From positions 1-64,000 of IMG/VR virus record IMGVR_UViG_3300026519_000001: a stretch of DNA of 64,000 nucleotides. One strand, written 5' to 3'. The notes beneath the pieces were generated by a model. It saw nothing but the letters and a program-made list of their open reading frames with translations. It was not told where the DNA came from and did no database searches. Both the position numbers and the translations under genes were made by a program. The DNA is from a virus. Numbering within the stretch: the first letter of the stretch is position 1; every line of letters starts with the position of its first letter. This document shows positions 2,515-32,800 of this stretch, piece after piece.

Positions 2515-2943
2515 ATGAAAGATAGAAACATCCAACATAAAGACGATTGGGCGACACCAGCATATTTTTATGATGAATTAAACAAAGAGTTTGATTTTAA
2601 CTTTGATCCTTGCCCGTATCTGCACGATTTTAGTAAATGGAACGGACTTGAAATTGAATGGAAGGAGCGAAATTTTATTAACCCACCTTATAGCAGAAAA
2701 CTGAAAGCCGCATTTGTAATTAAGGCAATAGAAGAAAGTAAAAAAGGTAAATTATGTGTAATGCTTTTGCCTGTGAGTACAAGCACTCAATTATTCCACA
2801 AACACATATTGCCGAATGCAAAAGAAATACGATTTATAGAAAAAAGAATAAAATTTTGCGGTGTAAATACAAAAGGAGAATATGTTACAGGCAAATCAGG
2901 CATGCACGATAGTATGTTGGTGGTGTTTGATGGACGCACTTAG
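2515..2943 (+). CDS. Phage DNA N6-adenine methyltransferase (Dam-like)
   Basis: DDWATP, FDPCP and catalytic FINPPYS motifs; VMLLP; EIRFI. Confidence 0.85.
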   Translation: MKDRNIQHKDDWATPAYFYDELNKEFDFNFDPCPYLHDFSKWNGLEIEWKERNFINPPYSRKLKAAFVIKAIEESKKGKLCVMLLPVSTSTQLFHKHILPNAKEIRFIEKRIKFCGVNTKGEYVTGKSGMHDSMLVVFDGRT

Positions 2944-2956
2944 CATTTTTTATTGT

Positions 2957-3316
2957 GCACAACGAATAGCATAAGCGTAGTGCGACTTTAGAAACGAAAT
3001 TTCAAAATAATAACAGAACTAATAATTAAAGATTATGGATAACGAAATTAAAATTGAAGCAAAAGAATTAGTGAATAAAATATACCAACCTCTTGGATCT
3101 TTAGATTGTAAAGTAAATAGTGATACAATGTGGGAATATGCACAAGGCAGAACGATTGAAATTGTGGAACATTTTATTGCGAAAATGCCAGAGGGTTCTG
3201 CAAATTGGTTGCATCATAGAAAGTTGATAGACGCTATTAATAATCTTTAATTATGGCATTTGAAACACTAAACTTGATTTTAAGCACTGTATTAAGCATT
3301 ACGCTTATGCAGTGTT
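2957..3316 (+). repeat. Hairpin site with a gene in its loop
   Basis: AAC 2961-2963; arms GCATAAGCGTAGTGC / GCATTACGCTTATGC; GTT 3314. Confidence 0.8.
3035..3250 (+). CDS. Hypothetical protein nested in a hairpin-site loop
   Basis: 71-aa ORF between the two arms. Confidence 0.65.
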   Translation: MDNEIKIEAKELVNKIYQPLGSLDCKVNSDTMWEYAQGRTIEIVEHFIAKMPEGSANWLHHRKLIDAINNL

Positions 3317-3342
3317 GTAAAATCGTTTTAATGTTTTACAAC
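3314..3342 (+). repeat. Empty cassette, copy 1
   Basis: GTTGTAAAATCGTTTTAATGTTTTACAAC, identical to 6026-6054. Confidence 0.85.
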
Positions 3343-3463
3343 GATTTGTATATGTGGTGTTGCGTGATTTAGCACCGAACTATTAAGAAATACTTAAACG
3401 TTCAAATTAAGCACGAAAATTAATAAATAAACAATAACCAAGCAATAACATATATACCGTGTT
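3340..3463 (+). repeat. Hairpin site (118-nt class)
   Basis: Arms GTATATGTGGTGTTGC / GCAATAACATATATAC. Confidence 0.75.
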
Positions 3464-3485
3464 ATATGCTTTTAAAAATAACAAA

Positions 3486-3752
3486 ATGTTAAGAAAATTA
3501 TTTAATAAAATAATACCCGTATCTGATGGAATTAAAAAATTAGGACAGCAAATGATTGACAATCCTTTAGACTGGGTTCAAGGGCAATATGAGTTTGTAA
3601 ATCGCAAAAATAGGGATGTTGCAATATGGACTTGCAATGGAATTAATTCGATTAAAATATTTGGATTTGATGGATTAACTAAAAGCGAAAAAATATATAT
3701 AAACAACTGTATAAAGATGGCAATTGCAAATAGATTAGTTCAGTCTCTATAA
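3486..3752 (+). CDS. Cassette-borne hypothetical protein (cassette 3461-3763)
   Basis: Flanked by GTTATATGC / GCATATAAC; ATG at 3486 preferred over GTG at 3459. Confidence 0.7.
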   Translation: MLRKLFNKIIPVSDGIKKLGQQMIDNPLDWVQGQYEFVNRKNRDVAIWTCNGINSIKIFGFDGLTKSEKIYINNCIKMAIANRLVQSL

Positions 3753-3760
3753 TTGCATAT

Positions 3761-3884
3761 AACGATTTTAATAAGAATAGTAGCCGAAAATGAAACGCAA
3801 AACTTATAAAATTGAACAGAATTATAAACATAGATAATAGCTTAAATAAACAGCTTAACTCGGCTATTATTTTTATTTTTTGTT
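3761..3884 (+). repeat. Hairpin site (118-nt class)
   Basis: Arms AATAAGAATAGTAGCCG / CGGCTATTATTTTTATT. Confidence 0.8.
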
Positions 3885-3898
3885 AGGCACTTTAATTT

Positions 3899-4210
3899 AT
3901 GGATAATAGAAAATGGCTCAAAAGAAAATACCCAAAAACATTTAATGAGATAAATAATTTTCTTGATAATGAAACTTTGATATTTGTTAAAAAAGGAAAA
4001 TATAAAATAGGTATGATAACAGAAGATATTATACAAGAGGATATTATATATTTAAAAGGAACTTTATGTTATTTTAAACGAAGTAATCCTATAAATAGTT
4101 ATAATTATCCGTTGCATACAATTTCTGTAAAAGATATACATAATGTAACGCTTAGTAATTATCATAATTTTTGGGTAACACCCAATAATGTAATTGAAAT
4201 TTTTGAATGA
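3899..4210 (+). CDS. Cassette-borne hypothetical protein (cassette 3882-4223)
   Basis: Flanked by GTTAGGCAC / GTGCCTAAC. Confidence 0.7.
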   Translation: MDNRKWLKRKYPKTFNEINNFLDNETLIFVKKGKYKIGMITEDIIQEDIIYLKGTLCYFKRSNPINSYNYPLHTISVKDIHNVTLSNYHNFWVTPNNVIEIFE

Positions 4211-4220
4211 TATTGTGCCT

Positions 4221-4309
4221 AACGTTGAATCTATGTGTAGTACAGCCATACATATAGTTTCATCGTTTAATAAAAATGTTAATTGGCTGTATTACATATA
4301 GATAGTGTT
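4221..4309 (+). repeat. Hairpin site (80-nt class)
   Basis: Arms ATCTATGTGTAGTACAGCCA / TGGCTGTATTACATATAGAT. Confidence 0.85.
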
Positions 4310-4325
4310 ATGTGGCGTTTTATTT

Positions 4326-4550
4326 ATGGAACAAAGAAATATTAATAATGTTATTTGGTTTTATTACGACAGTGTAATGGAATTTTTGCAAGATTTAATA
4401 GAATATGAATGCGAAATATTTAGAGATGAATATGGTCGTAGGTGGCAATATAAGAAGTACAAATTTTATTTTGCTGATATAAATGAAGAATTAACGGAAG
4501 GACTTTCGTGTTTGCACTTGTTTAAATCAGGAATTACAAATGCCACCTAA
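4326..4550 (+). CDS. Cassette-borne hypothetical protein (cassette 4307-4551)
   Basis: Flanked by GTTATGTGGCGTTT / AAATGCCACCTAAC; stop codon lies inside the AAC end. Confidence 0.7.
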   Translation: MEQRNINNVIWFYYDSVMEFLQDLIEYECEIFRDEYGRRWQYKKYKFYFADINEELTEGLSCLHLFKSGITNAT

Positions 4551-4572
4551 CAACAGGATAACAGCAATTGCG
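4546..4572 (+). repeat. 27-bp direct repeat, copy 1
   Basis: CCTAACAACAGGATAACAGCAATTGCG, identical at 11312-11338. Confidence 0.9.
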
Positions 4573-4663
4573 TATATATTATAAACGAATATTAATTTTA
4601 CTAACATTAGGTAATATTAATTATTTGTTGTTACTTTGAATTAACAAAAAAAAGAGAGCAATT

Positions 4664-4930
4664 ATGATAAATAGAACTATTGAAATTGAAGATTTAGACA
4701 AAGAGCTGTCTATTACAGTAAAAATTAACTTTTCGGGAGACTGGGAAGAACATTTTGAACATGAAGGAAAAATTGAATATCAGCCAAAATTTAATGAAAT
4801 ACTTAGGGTTGTTGATATTAGTGATAACCCGAAGCATAGTCATAGCATTTTGGAAATTGCCGATGAGCATTACGAAATTGCCAATAAATATTTAGAAAAT
4901 CACGATGTGATGGAGGAGCTAAACCACTAA
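4664..4930 (+). CDS. Hypothetical protein
   Basis: 88-aa acidic ORF. Confidence 0.65.
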   Translation: MINRTIEIEDLDKELSITVKINFSGDWEEHFEHEGKIEYQPKFNEILRVVDISDNPKHSHSILEIADEHYEIANKYLENHDVMEELNH

Positions 4931-4933
4931 ATT

Positions 4934-5155
4934 ATGAAAAATATAATAATTTTAATGATTATTGCAGCAACATTAAGCTGCTCTAAAAAAGAAGAAATTA
5001 ATTGCAAGTGTGATTTTATTTCTTATGAAAGAGAAAATAGGGACTCGGAGTAGGTTGAGAAAAGCAGAATAAGCAGAATAACAGAGTGCGGTAAGCCACC
5101 ATTCTTTATTATTAGCAACACAGAATTATCTAAAGATGTAATTTCTTGCAATTAG
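4934..5155 (+). pseudogene. Small Cys-rich lipoprotein interrupted by an in-frame TAG
   Basis: MKNIIILMIIAATLSC (lipobox) SKKEEINCKC...DSE*VEKSR...ISCN*. TAG at 5051-5053; the frame stays open to 5155 and the next ATG is at 5158. Confidence 0.55.
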
Positions 5156-5157
5156 TT

Positions 5158-5361
5158 ATGGAAAAGTCAGAAAATAAATTAAAAGAGCAACAACTTAGGG
5201 CAGAAATTAGAATTATGCTATCAAAGTATATAGACAACTCACCGTCAATATCTTTAATAGAAAATAAGATAAGAGACCTTGAGCTGCTTGTTTTTAATCG
5301 TGCTTATAAACAAGTATCACAACGATTTGTATATGATTTTGTAGGCATTACGAGCCACTAA
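5158..5361 (+). CDS. Hypothetical protein whose 3' end runs into a hairpin left arm
   Basis: ATG at 5158; AAC at 5321-5323 lies inside the ORF. Confidence 0.55.
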   Translation: MEKSENKLKEQQLRAEIRIMLSKYIDNSPSISLIENKIRDLELLVFNRAYKQVSQRFVYDFVGITSH

Positions 5362-5443
5362 TTTTTTGAATTACCTACATATTTGAAACGAGAAAATAAA
5401 TTTGAATTATTAACCAAATCGCCTATAAATTATATACTTTGTT
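5321..5443 (+). repeat. Hairpin site (118-nt class)
   Basis: Arms GTATATGATTTTGTAGGC / GCCTATAAATTATATAC. Confidence 0.75.
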
Positions 5444-5473
5444 ATATATCTGGGCGGTTTTAAAGACTAAATT

Positions 5474-5686
5474 ATGATAGAAGAGTTAGAGAAAACAACA
5501 GACTACGCTAAGAAGTACAGAGGTGTAGCACAGCAATCACTTGAAAGAAACAATTATATGAACCAAATAGAAGATGGGGAGCAAATACAGCAAAGGATTA
5601 TAGATGCTGTGCTGGTTGACTTTATAAACTACATTGGAATGATGCACGGAATTGATTATGGAATTTATACAAAAGACTTAATGTAG
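5474..5686 (+). CDS. Cassette-borne hypothetical protein (cassette 5441-5699)
   Basis: Flanked by GTTATAT / ATATAAC. Confidence 0.7.
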   Translation: MIEELEKTTDYAKKYRGVAQQSLERNNYMNQIEDGEQIQQRIIDAVLVDFINYIGMMHGIDYGIYTKDLM

Positions 5687-5696
5687 CCTTGCATAT

Positions 5697-6028
5697 AACT
5701 ATTGCTATATGAATAGTGCGGATAAAATACACGAAACTTTGAATTAAACACAAACCTAATAATTAAAATTATGTACTTAATAAAAATAAAAACTCATAAC
5801 AATCACGGATGCTGGTTAAGGTCTTTTTACGATGGCGACCCTGATAGAACATTGATAAGAGAAAGTGCTTTGAAGTTTGCAAAGAAAAAGATGGCAGAAG
5901 GTAAAGTAAAAATGCTTAACCAACTACACCCTAATAGAAGTTTTGAATTAGAGAAATTTTAATTATGACATTTGAAACACTAAACGTTAATTACAGCACG
6001 AAACCAAGCATTATTTATATAGCGTGTT
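5697..6028 (+). repeat. Hairpin site with a gene in its loop
   Basis: Arms GCTATATGAATAGTGC / GCATTATTTATATAGC. Confidence 0.8.
5771..5962 (+). CDS. Hypothetical protein nested in a hairpin-site loop
   Basis: 63-aa ORF between the arms; motif GDPDRTL. Confidence 0.65.
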   Translation: MYLIKIKTHNNHGCWLRSFYDGDPDRTLIRESALKFAKKKMAEGKVKMLNQLHPNRSFELEKF

Positions 6029-6054
6029 GTAAAATCGTTTTAATGTTTTACAAC
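6026..6054 (+). repeat. Empty cassette, copy 2
   Basis: Identical to 3314-3342. Confidence 0.85.
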
Positions 6055-6137
6055 GGTTGGTATATGTGTTGTACGCCAATCACTTAACTTAAATTTTAGT
6101 ACGACACTTAATAGGCGTATAACATATATACCTTGTT
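6052..6137 (+). repeat. Hairpin site (80-nt class)
   Basis: Arms GGTATATGTGTTGTACGCC / GGCGTATAACATATATACC. Confidence 0.85.
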
Positions 6138-9027: not shown

Positions 9028-9071
9028 AACGAGATAGGCTAAACGGTTGTTTTAATGCCGTTTTAGCCATT
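9028..9071 (+). repeat. Minimal or degenerate hairpin site
   Basis: AAC, GGCTAAACGG, TTGTTTTAATG, CCGTTTTAGCC; no intact downstream GTT. Confidence 0.5.
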
Positions 9072-9439: not shown

Positions 9440-9560
9440 AACGGTTTTAATAAGAATAGTAGCGTGTAATTATGCGGAAACTATCAGATTGAAATAATTA
9501 ATTAACAGGTAATAGCCACTAAAAAGACACCTTAACAGGCTATTATTTTTATACATTGTT
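9440..9560 (+). repeat. Hairpin site (118-nt class)
   Basis: Left arm TTTTAATAAGAATAGTAGC, same as site 3763; right arm GCTATTATTTTTAT. Confidence 0.75.
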
Positions 9561-9832: not shown

Positions 9833-9957
9833 TGCACCCTAACGATGCCTCACTTTGCTATATTTATTGTTAGGCATCTTTTAAAATTACGGCATTATGG
9901 GATATAATCTAATAAGTGGTTGTCATAAATGTGAAAAGCAAATATTTCACTTTAGAA

Positions 9958-10209: not shown

Positions 10210-10397
10210 AACGGTTTGTGCAAGGTTAGTGCGGAATTAATAACAGAACTTAATAAATATAAACTATGGTAAATATAAACACTATTGAAGGAATTGAAAA
10301 CCTTATAGATAAAAGAACAAAACCTTTAAAAGAGGAAATACTTAAACTACGATTTGAATTAGAAGAACTGAAACAAGCATTAACTATACAGATTGTT
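10210..10397 (+). repeat. Hairpin site with an ORF in its loop
   Basis: Arms TGTGCAAGGTTAGTGC / GCATTAACTATACA. Confidence 0.65.
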
Positions 10398-10415
10398 AGC
10401 ATTTCGGTTTTCTAA
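10266..10415 (+). CDS. Junction-spanning 49-aa coiled-coil peptide (not in the ORF track)
   Basis: MVNINTIEG...ELKQALTIQIVSISVF*; crosses GTT 10395 in frame. Confidence 0.55.
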   Translation: MVNINTIEGIENLIDKRTKPLKEEILKLRFELEELKQALTIQIVSISVF

Positions 10416-11311: not shown

Positions 11312-11338
11312 CCTAACAACAGGATAACAGCAATTGCG
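11312..11338 (+). repeat. 27-bp direct repeat, copy 2
   Basis: Identical to 4546-4572. Confidence 0.9.
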
Positions 11339-11527
11339 GTATTAGACAAGACTAGTTTGATTAAAACCGCTAATGGTGAATAATGAAAAGTATAATATGA
11401 TAATCCATACTTAAAATTTTGCTATAAGAATTGAACTTAGATGGCTTTTTACTTTATACAATGTTACCCATCTTTTAAAAGTACAAAAATTTGAAATTGT
11501 TAGAATATTAAAAAATAAAATTAAAAA

Positions 11528-29856: not shown

Positions 29857-32800
29857 TTAGCACTTCCTTCTTTTTATTTTATCAACTTTAGACTGCATGT
29901 TCTTTCTCAATCTATCCATTTCTTTACTAATAACTTTTTTATCTCCTACTACTACATTTTTAATTCTATCTTTCATATCTTCTTTCTTTTCAGCAACAGT
30001 AGTCTTTTTAATTGACTTTTCCAAGTTATTTGTAATATGATTTGCTATATAAATAGCTTTTGTTTTATATCTATTTATAGGATTAGTTGAATCAGTAGCA
30101 TCTGATTGAAATATATTACCTGTTTGATCAATAGTTACATCAGTATTAATAACCTGATTATCAATCATAAGATTTTTATACTTAGGATCTGATAATTTAT
30201 TTACATTTACTGTTCTAGATTTAAATTGCTCAAGAAACTTTTGGAAATTAATCATTTTAATTGGATTTCCCAACTCCGCTAATGTAAGAGAATCTTCTCC
30301 AAAGTTAAGAACTCCTTTATTATAATATAATTGTGTAGCAGGATTATTTAATGTGTTAGTGCCATTAAATATTAAATGGTCTAATACTTCACTAACTTTA
30401 ACATTCTCTCCTAAAAATGCTTTATCTATTTGAGGCAATAAATCATAAAGTTCTGATGATTCACTCATTAGGCTATCTTTATAATTAACCTTCCCTGGTG
30501 TAGCAGGGCTAATTATATTAGTATATATACCAATTATTAAAGCAGTTTCATTTTTTGATAATTTTCTAAGGTTAAGTTTTATAGGTATCTTAGAACCATT
30601 AGGGGATTTAACTTCTGTAAACAAAGCCCCAGCCCAAGGAATATTAGCTTTTTTAACATTAATTACACTATTATAGTCTGTATTAATATCTTTAGTATCA
30701 GCATCATATAAATGACCTTCTTTATTAACATACATTAATTTTACATCAGAAGCTGATTCGAATCCACTTATTTCTAATACATTTTTAGAGATGCCATCTG
30801 ATTTAAAAATACCTGAATATTGGTATTTAATTTTACCTTTGGGCTTCTTACCATCTCTTAAAGCATCTATAATTTGACCTCTAAGTTGCCTTTCGGCTTT
30901 ACCTCCTGTACCCCATTGACCATTACTTTGTTTTCTAGGTTTAAATAAATAAGTGTACATTTCGGAATCGCCATTAATTACTACTTTAATAGCTAATTCA
31001 TTAAGTACTTCTTCAGTTTTTTTACCTTCTTTATAAGCTCTTAATACATCGAAATTAGTTATATCTTCATCAACTACAAATTCAATAGGAATATTTGTTT
31101 TATCATTATTACTAGCCAAAAACTCCATGAATTTAGGAGACTTTGGATTATTAAAAGAAATTTTAACATCAGTTTCTGTATTTGTTTTTGAATTGGATGA
31201 CTGACTATTCTTAATAATAGTTTTAGCCATTGTATCAAGACTGTCATCATTCCAATTTTGAAGATTGGTTATATCTTCATTCGTGCTTGCTGCTTCGTTA
31301 ACTTCAACTTTTTTATTGGAGAATACAGGCTTAACTCCTTGTTCAATAGCATCTTCCTGATCCTTATCAGTTATATCTCTTTTAAATTGTTCTGCTTCAT
31401 TTTGTGACAATAAACCATCTCGAACTTTATTATCAAATATCCCATTTATTTGATCTTCTGGAAGCACACCCATCATGCTTTTATTAACAAAATCCTCTAT
31501 TTGTTGATTTGTCATATCAACTTCTTTTGGTATATTTTGTATATCAGAAGGATTACCTATTTTCGGACCAGTATCTGGTATTTGTGCTTCTATAGGAGGC
31601 TGTGGGTTCACACCTTCATCTTTTGCTTGTTCAAATTGAGCTAATGGATTTTCATCTTGAATAGTTGGAGTTGGTGTTACATTTGAAGGAGCTCCTGGTT
31701 TCTTCGATTTAATATTATCCTCTTTAACTTTTTTAATTATTTTATCAACTCCACCTTTTTCTTCTATTCCTTCATTATCAACTACATTATTAAGTTCAGA
31801 TTCTAAAGTTTTTATTTTTATATTTAAATTATCTTTAATATGATCTCCTTTAAGTTTTGTTCTAGCAAGTCTAAGCAACTTAATTTTATCTTCTGTTAAA
31901 ATAGAAGGAGACATTACATTTTCCTTAATGTACTCCATTACACTTTGATTATTTTTATTTTTAAATTGATCTGTAGCTCTATCAATTTCCATTAAGGTCT
32001 TATCAAAATCTTTTATATCAAAGTTGATGTTTTTATATTCTTGAACAATTTCAGATTCATACATAAATTCCACAAAATGATCTGAAAGTTCTTTGTCTTT
32101 ATTATTTAAATATTCATCAAATGTAAATTGAGTTTCAAAAATATTATTATAACTTGTTATTCTTTTTGATATTTCTGATAAAAGTTTTGATTGACCCTTT
32201 TCTAATATATTTTTTCCAGAATCATTAAGTTTCCTTTCTATAGAAAGTGCCATTAATTCATCACTGGTACTATATTTTCGTAAATTTAAATATTCTTTCT
32301 CTAGTGCATCTAATTTACTAATTTGTTTATCAATATTTTTGATTACTTCTGGAGTTACTCTCTCTGCTTCTTTAAGCTCATTAATTTGTTCTCTAAGATT
32401 TTGAGTAGTACCCATTGAAAAATTCCTTACAGCAATCATTGCAAAAGAATAATCATTAGTTATTTCATTAGCTTCATTTGCTGTTATTTCATTTACATCT
32501 TCTAAACTTTCCTCTGTTAATTTTTTAAATATACTTTTATATAGTGTTTGGTCTATATAATCTTTATTTTTAACAAATTCCTGTTGTTGCGAAGTAAAAT
32601 GCTCCATTCGAGACTTGTTAATCTTTTTCTGAAAAGGAGCTTGTGTAATAGCATATTGCACTGGTCCACCAAACATTCCCATAGCACCTTCTAAAAGTGC
32701 TTGCTCTGACATGGCAAATTCAGTAAACCTTTCACTTAAAGTCATATCTTCTAATCTCTTATCAGATGTAACGTATCCTTTTGAAGCTAGGGATTTTCTA

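Follow-up and report, generated by a model that had tools for sequence, protein, structure and literature searches.

Two small genes of a marine phage, unrelated to each other, lie inside the loops of long imperfect hairpins at 2961-3316 and 5697-6028 of the 64,000-nt stretch analysed here (the window), which is the first part of IMG/VR record IMGVR_UViG_3300026519_000001, a complete virus of 94,261 bp with terminal repeats. Each gene is followed by the same 29-bp sequence (the 29-mer), and each of the two structures is probably one mobile cassette of an integron-like system common to Flavobacteriaceae and their phages, with the gene carried in the loop of the recombination hairpin. Comparison of sequences shows that cargo has a genuine second place in the loop: the layout recurs elsewhere in the phage genome, in other viral contigs, in the cultured Polaribacter phage P12002L, and in the chromosome of Formosa sp. 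A9, and at least four unrelated proteins have been found in one common scaffold. A first-pass annotation of the window, made from its letters, had proposed both the second slot and the loading of different genes into a shared scaffold, and both ideas held up. Its view of the 29-mer as an empty cassette in its own right did not, as this sequence is really two end arms (14 + 1 + 14 nt) that travel together with the loop-gene hairpin upstream.

Two gene-bearing hairpins, their scaffold and the 29-mer

Between ~2,960 and 11,470 the window holds an array of small plus-strand open reading frames (ORFs) delimited by inverted repeats (GTT + 6 nt ... 6 nt + AAC), and between these ORFs stand imperfect hairpins with AAC as their first and GTT as their last bases. 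The sites of this hairpin family share one layout, namely AAC, an unpaired spacer of 5-8 nt, an inner stem of 15-20 bp, a loop, and GTT, and ordinary members are 85-126 nt long. Their arms covary between copies while two G.T wobble positions are retained, and the 5' side is longer by about two bases. The predicted stems are continuous, with the two conserved G.T wobbles and no bulges (RNA energy parameters only), and the other strand would show A.C mismatches at such pairs. The two hairpins in question, of 356 and 332 nt (Table 1), match the ordinary ones in their arms, in the conserved G.T positions, in the longer 5' side, and in the left-loop motif. The arms of hairpin 1 (2969-2983 and 3296-3310) pair with a G.T wobble, and the two arm mismatches of hairpin 2 are both G.T wobbles.

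Both ORFs were located between the hairpin arms, where the first-pass annotation had put them, and its statement that they are unrelated was borne out by the proteins. The product of gene 1 is predicted to be a three-helix bundle (AlphaFold2, pLDDT 94.5) and that of gene 2 a beta sheet plus a helix (pLDDT 89), and BLASTP detected no similarity between the two. Neither loop protein, nor any of the small frames downstream, matched a Pfam family, and neither model matched a PDB structure in Foldseek at E <= 0.001. A search for related loci found no relative of either protein in IMG/VR, and only two for gene 1 in JGI metagenomes. Compared with its closest relative, in contig L165, gene 1 differs by 11 synonymous and two nonsynonymous codons.

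What the two loci share is the surroundings of their genes. The flanks, recognised already in the first reading, correspond to direct repeats D2 (115 nt, 82%) and D14 and are 78-82% identical; they are also partly self-complementary, so that inverted repeats I7 and I19 bracket both genes, and I7-type flanks are conserved around the gene 1 homologues in contigs L165 and L166. The scaffold motif TTATGRYATTTGAAACRYTAAAC is rare in IMG/VR, with only two contigs. Flanks this similar, together with an identical 29-mer, might be taken for the trace of a simple tandem-type duplication whose ORFs diverged beyond recognition, a reading to which we give next to no probability and which we regard as refuted: each ORF has its own conserved family, the two lack similarity and differ in fold, and the scaffold carries other genes in Formosa and in contig L075. 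Homology of the two ORFs, or a scaffold never seen with other genes, had been named at the outset as what would speak against a shared loading scaffold, and we found neither.

The 29-mer occurs exactly after both genes, and these two copies, both on the plus strand, are its only exact occurrences in the window, with none in 100 shuffles. Cassette ends in the array are complementary along 14 bp, in which position 11 is a wobble (visible at 9558/9843 and in the modules that carry a Dam methylase gene), and the 29-mer is composed of a 14-nt start arm, one base, and a 14-nt end arm, free of cargo. Its apparent loop corresponds to CGTT/AATG, the inner-arm variant seen most often; among 185 distinct modules, 25% have CGTT after the 9-nt start arm, vs 1.5% in the background. 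Variants of the 29-mer keep the stem by paired changes (GTAAAA/TTTTAC, AGCAAA/TTTGCT, and GTGCAA/TTGCAC). At every locus read, the right arm of a hairpin precedes the 29-mer and the sequence after it varies. Since the 29-mer co-travels with the upstream loop-gene hairpin and identity ends at its AAC, it is a part of that hairpin's unit and not a separate cassette.

Beyond the window, the exact 29-mer was found in 35 other IMG/VR contigs, in the cultured Cellulophaga phage phi39:1 (upstream of terminase genes), and in seven bacterial contigs, six labelled Flavobacteriales and one Acholeplasma. As a separate observation, a variant on the minus strand of contig L164 (~4820-4860) has mismatched halves, GTTGTAAAA...TTTGCTAAC, and looks like a recombinant of two stem types.

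Conservation of the 29-mer could alternatively reflect a coding role, with the 29-mer encoding part of a small cysteine-rich peptide (M.FETLN...CCKIVLMFYN...) whose translation is coupled to that of the loop gene via TAATTATG. Frames of 39 and 40 aa are indeed open over both window copies and, by eye, appear open in contigs L016, L026, and L031. However, most contigs with the 29-mer lack such an upstream start codon, the C-terminal part differs in every copy, and the paired stem changes of the variants suit a structure and not a coding sequence. We hold the coupled peptide to be very improbable and rejected it, the frame being only 9 aa long in the closest relative (L165) and 23 aa, with another sequence, in L166.

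Recurrence and exchange of loop cargo

Five hairpins of the phage genome carry a gene in the loop, three of them in the window (at 2961, 5697, and 10210) and two (at 83170 and 83556) in a second array at 82.5-84.9 kb. Further cases were sought in viral contigs through the 29-mer and the ORFs upstream of it, a search that the first-pass annotation had suggested, and the survey set consisted of 32 distinct contigs with the 29-mer and enough upstream sequence. A long-range hairpin was supported in 17 of these 32: the arm that abuts the 29-mer paired with a left arm anchored on AAC, 150 nt or more upstream, and the pairing scored above the 95th percentile of shuffled-arm decoys, where about 1.6 would be expected by chance, and in nine contigs the long-range pairing of the arms beat every decoy. 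Long-range stem matches with a score below ~33 are mostly chance, and generic ones were left uncounted. Between the arms there is usually a single ORF, of 44-215 aa. The gene-in-loop layout was also found in the Formosa sp. A9 chromosome and in contigs of metagenome-assembled genomes, and in P12002L, which bears hairpins of the same family (L212), two annotated genes, gp57 and gp41, are likewise enclosed in hairpin loops.

A succession of loop gene and 29-mer, described initially for the two genes, holds for these and fails elsewhere, both at the third gene-in-loop hairpin of the window (10210-10397) and in contig L166. In the former, an ORF of 49 aa (10266-10415) begins in the loop and runs through the right arm, and the hairpin is followed by a cargo-bearing module and not by the 29-mer; its left flank is as in the other two loci.

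Exchange of cargo within a constant frame is evident at several levels. The scaffold of the window recurs in Formosa and in contigs L075 and L165, with a total of four mutually unrelated cargo proteins, and in three locus pairs identity is 90-100% in the arms but only 50-74% in the segment that they enclose. In the source metagenome itself, a second contig (depth 4.2 vs ~20) matches 5700-5768 and 5957-6026, and 238 other letters replace 5769-5956, which is essentially gene 2. Two pairs (L045/L063 and L056/L069) share 90-100% identity over a stretch that begins with the left arm, includes the gene and the right arm, and ends with the 29-mer; identity drops to background (58-63%) immediately outside this unit on both sides.

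Homologues of the Dam methylase gene were seen in either position. They lie between sites in contigs L084, L085, and L090, where the modules start with GTTGTGTGT... and end with ...ACACACAAC, and in a hairpin loop in L111 (score 49); L151 looks alike. Dam modules retain the upstream hairpin, and similarity among them ends at the AAC. In the window, the end arm of the Dam module finishes at the AAC of 2961-2963, directly before hairpin 1, and homologues in other contigs retain the ...ACAAC end, with similarity stopping at that point. Separately, in L165 (437-1305) the loop with the gene 1 homologue continues into a second, DNA methyltransferase-like gene before the contig ends short of the right arm, and it appears that more than one gene fits in a single loop.

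Because the loop genes come with repeats of their own in the two window loci, they might be separate small selfish inserts, each with its own inverted repeat (ATAATTAAA / TTTAATTAT), that target the apex of a hairpin as a safe site, comparable to the insertion of group IIC-attC introns and IS1111-attC elements at integron attC sites, in which case the hairpin would be the victim and not the carrier. Such inserts would account for the exchange of cargo exactly between the inner repeats (5769-5956), for conserved flanks that stop at the start and stop codons, for the bracketing of both genes by I7 and I19, and for the gene 1 homologue of L166, which keeps the inner flanks in the midst of different outer arms and a different following module. 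Yet many loop genes elsewhere, e.g., gp57 of P12002L, abut the arms without an inner repeat, and the cargo proteins (44-215 aa, of unknown fold) give no nuclease, transposase, or reverse-transcriptase signal. Scans of the window for Rfam families and for tRNA genes found neither a group II intron nor any other Rfam match and no tRNA gene. The left arm, gene, right arm, and 29-mer travel as one unit, and we consider selfish insertion unlikely.

Forms without cargo exist for both stem types. One is the 29-mer, and the other is a short hairpin of ~45 nt (AAC...GTT), essentially loop-free and likewise capped by the turn CGTTTTAATG that forms the centre of the 29-mer; P12002L is among the genomes that have it. 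It is conceivable, if on the doubtful side, that the loop is a true loading bay, into which new ORFs are inserted at the CGTTTTAATG apex of such zero-cargo stems. Were this so, loop-gene cassettes would be snapshots of cassette birth and of gene movement between slots.

Folding strand, chromosomal arrays and a candidate recombinase

Hairpins were scanned for by an alignment anchored on AAC...GTT with a loose left-arm motif, with the opposite strand as control. Over the whole phage genome the scan yielded 47 matches on the plus strand vs one on the minus strand, all within the two arrays. Pairs of the G.T/T.G type outnumbered A.C/C.A pairs by 157:27 in viral hairpins and by 220:7 in chromosomal ones when the two types were scored alike and the two fixed wobble positions excluded, and this excess indicates that one defined strand folds.

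The chromosomal hairpins come from arrays of the same site family in Flavobacteriaceae. In the complete chromosome of Formosa sp. A9 the 29-mer lies inside an array of ~40 kb with 32 hairpins on one strand and none on the other, and this array ends at a gene for a 390-aa tyrosine recombinase. Against the integron integrase model TIGR02249 the enzyme scores 208.9 bits (cut-off 265), and its alignment with archaeal XerA spans the full length and lacks the IntI-typical insertion. Homologues were found in 65 of 151 Flavobacteriaceae genomes sampled, and of 15 genomes fetched, 13 have hairpin arrays immediately past the 3' end of the Xer-like gene, with 90 hairpins on the expected strand and one on the other. 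Chromosomal arrays comprise tens of sites of a uniform length (~123-126 nt).

Two side observations concern these arrays. The Xer-like gene is often 100-500 nt from a contig end, on its 3' side (G142, G098, G066, G105, G075, G048, and others), as expected if repeat arrays break short-read assemblies, and arrays may hence be under-counted. In Formosa sp. A9, one hairpin sequence with the left arm GTTTTGTTTATGAAAAGTTGC is present in nine copies between 1,645,204 and 1,669,090 (L080-L081), and blocks such as 1,647,707-1,648,276 and 1,667,712-1,668,284 look duplicated.

Genes and folding strand stand in opposite relation in the two kinds of array: genes are antisense to the folding strand in chromosomal arrays (54:3; L080-L082 and L197-L211) and sense to it in viral ones (23:0), so that phage cassettes are not simply captured host cassettes. 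The orientation also bears on whether the phage hairpins act mainly in RNA, with stems as processing or stability signals on an early transcript and the 29-mer as a small RNA hairpin with a protein-binding apex. RNase III stems are familiar in such roles, surrounding rRNA or separating the early genes of T7, and the consistent sense orientation in viral arrays, the conserved G.U-compatible wobbles, the absence of a recombinase from the phage, and a 29-mer identical in unrelated phages (including phi39:1, upstream of terminase genes) would all agree with an RNA function. In the chromosomal arrays beside the recombinase, however, and unlike RNase III-type processing stems, the wobble-compatible strand is antisense to the genes and shows the same asymmetry (220:7), so that the fold is not primarily a feature of mRNA and is selected in DNA there. 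Further, similarity between contigs stops precisely at AAC and GTT, a pattern better suited to recombination than to processing of RNA. Nor does the 29-mer resemble a terminator, and the terminator scan found no excess of terminators in the region; sigma-70-type sites were not enriched there either (48 vs 54.7 expected, with Bacteroidota-type and phage RNA polymerase promoters outside the scan). A mainly RNA-based role is thus quite unlikely in our judgement.

For the favoured reading, that of integron-like cassettes with a gene in the hairpin loop, we propose the following course. The recombination site folds from a single DNA strand, and on this strand a cassette consists of a hairpin and the module that follows it (GTT + 11 nt ... 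11 nt + AAC), ending at that AAC. In ordinary cassettes the cargo is in the module after the hairpin; in the two cassettes described here the gene is in the apical loop, and the following module has only two 14-nt arms placed back to back, i.e., the 29-mer. All that is left of this module between sites is thus the pair of arms that the outer stem requires. A host-type Xer-like tyrosine recombinase, supplied by the host or by a co-infecting element, would act on the folded strand. We infer that the loop-gene hairpin may still fold and recombine and that the crossover would be at the 5' AAC; the recombinase would be a borrowed one, given that the phage lacks its own and movement would then depend on the Xer-like enzyme of a host or co-infecting element.

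Several points weigh against this proposal. Neither a tyrosine recombinase nor a Y1 transposase (PF01797) was found in the complete phage genome, and no recombination event, circular form, or empty site was seen among the assembled contigs of the source run. Stem halves 290-1200 nt apart should fold less readily than those of an ordinary site. In phages the folding strand is the mRNA strand, and an extra role in RNA is possible. The scanner prefers G.T and demands G at two positions, which inflates the strand asymmetry somewhat, although the pairs were recounted with symmetrical scoring and without those two positions. Finally, most loop-gene cases were found via the 29-mer, so the strength of the association between loop gene and 29-mer is biased, and loop genes found by other routes precede other modules (at 10210 in the window, in L090, and in L166).

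As for other enzymes, a Y1 transposase system (IS200/IS605 or REP/RAYT) was considered and rejected, PF01797 not being found in the phage and the enzyme beside the arrays being a tyrosine recombinase. By-eye comparison of the sites with the dif/Xer core site and with the IHF site gave no convincing match.

Relation to known systems and surrounding features

The attC sites of integrons are usually given as about 57-141 nt long, with a non-coding apical part. Genes inside the loops of attC sites are, to our knowledge, unreported, and no report of genes inside such sites was found in the literature searched. The hairpins described here resemble attC sites: they are imperfect palindromes that fold from one strand and have an AAC...GTT core, an unpaired spacer, and an apical part that varies. 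As in integron cassettes, the two ends of one cassette are complementary. The chromosomal arrays further resemble sedentary chromosomal integrons, especially those of the inverted-integrase layout: the sites are arrayed beside a tyrosine recombinase, and the cargo genes point the same way as the recombinase gene and lie antisense to the folding strand. The differences are equally specific. The neighbouring recombinase is Xer-like, falls below the TIGR02249 cut-off, and lacks the IntI-specific insertion; the stems as predicted bear conserved G.T wobbles and no visible bulged bases, unlike attC; the phage genes are sense to the folding strand, unlike those of integron cassettes; and the loop-gene sites measure 190-1200 nt, beyond the attC range.

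Clusters of attC sites without an integrase (CALINs) have been described in virulent phages of marine hosts, P12002L included, with DNA methylases among the cargo (Qi et al. 2023, PMC9892861), and one P12002L site was recombined by IntI1 (PMC9892861). That study describes sites between genes only, as classical attC sites (PMC9892861), whereas genes inside a site, a bare 29-mer, an Xer-like partner, and a reversed gene orientation are not described there. On the minus strand of P12002L (29975-30080 and 30850-30965), short CGTTTTAATG-capped hairpins separate the methylase genes gp35, gp36, and gp37 at the location of the published CALIN, and from this position the site recombined by IntI1 may be one of the hairpins mapped here. 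IntegronFinder surveys found almost nothing in Bacteroidetes (PMC9024848).

In relation to phage elements, there are parallels with the promoter-early stem-loop (PeSL) modules of T4-type phages: in both, structured elements that occur repeatedly stand on either side of small accessory genes where lytic phage genomes are plastic, and both mark gene swaps between relatives. PeSL are promoter plus stem-loop units thought to act via homologous recombination; here, in contrast, the breakpoints are exactly AAC and GTT, the sites are common to chromosomal arrays beside a recombinase, and sigma-70-type promoters are not in excess. Foreign DNA inside or at an attC-type hairpin is also known from group IIC-attC introns and IS1111-attC elements, but these bring a reverse transcriptase or transposase of their own along with defined RNA or end structures. 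In the loops described here the cargo consists of ordinary small phage genes, without such signals.

It has long been asked how integron cassettes come by their genes, and classical attC sites have been treated as short non-coding structures. A related site family that tolerates whole genes in its apical loop, repeatedly and with different genes in one scaffold, and that has defined zero-cargo forms of both stems, is of interest in this context. Lytic phages without a recombinase have cassette hardware in common with the chromosomal arrays of hosts, which bears on the spread of small anti-defence and DNA-modification genes. The cultured systems P12002L, phi39:1, and Formosa sp. A9 give concrete substrates on which recombination, the strand used, and the entry of cargo can be tested.

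The array that contains the two loci is dense, with at least 13 sites inside 7.5 kb and no integrase in the 94 kb of the genome. G+C content is 25-37% over the window and ~29% in the array, and the window also encodes phage replication genes and giant minus-strand ORFs. The features mapped in and around the array are listed in Table 1.

Table 1. Mapped features of the cassette array, by position in the window
Feature	Position	Strand	Basis or remark
Dam methylase gene with cassette end arm	2515-2965	+	Pfam PF05869, E 2.6e-20
Recombination-type hairpin 1 (AAC 2961-2963, GTT 3314-3316, loop 312 nt)	2961-3316	+	stem scan score 36
Inner inverted repeat I7, left half, brackets gene 1	3022-3044	+	23 nt, 87% complementary; partner 3232-3254
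Loop cargo gene 1, 71-aa protein family, function unknown	3035-3250	+	11 homologues, 58-87% identity
Inner inverted repeat I7, right half, overlaps last codons and stop of gene 1	3232-3254	+	
39-aa frame over right arm, 29-mer, and next left arm; judged non-gene	3253-3372	+	
Bare inter-site module (29-mer), copy 1	3314-3342	+	exact repeat
Ordinary hairpin, 124 nt, loop without gene, begins at AAC of first 29-mer	3340-3463	+	hairpin scan
Recombination-type hairpin 2 (arms 5704-5719 and 6008-6023, loop 288 nt)	5697-6028	+	stem scan score 36
Loop cargo gene 2, 63-aa protein family, function unknown	5771-5962	+	9 homologues, 60-89% identity
40-aa frame of like kind after gene 2; judged non-gene	5965-6087	+	
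Bare inter-site module (29-mer), copy 2	6026-6054	+	exact repeat
Ordinary hairpin, 86 nt, after second 29-mer	6052-6137	+	stem scan score 45
Short hairpin, apex TGTTTTAATG, a variant of CGTTTTAATG	9041-9071	+	
Third gene-in-loop hairpin	10210-10397	+	stem scan score 29; left-loop motif common to 3011-3030

Contigs of the source run cease to match the window at start codons and cassette boundaries or close to them (5471, 6170, 7439, 9842, 9892, and 10160; the point at 9842 falls at an AAC), and co-occurring strains apparently differ in their cassettes. On its left side the array seems to begin at Dam, which has a cassette end arm and no start arm. Just upstream of Dam lies the sole terminator-like site in the region (2459-2499), which consists of a perfect hairpin of 17 bp and a T run after it. 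A boundary of a different kind occurs after two cassette ends (4546-4575 and 11312-11340), where the 26-nt sequence CTAACAACAGGATAACAGCAATTGCG replaces the usual left arm.

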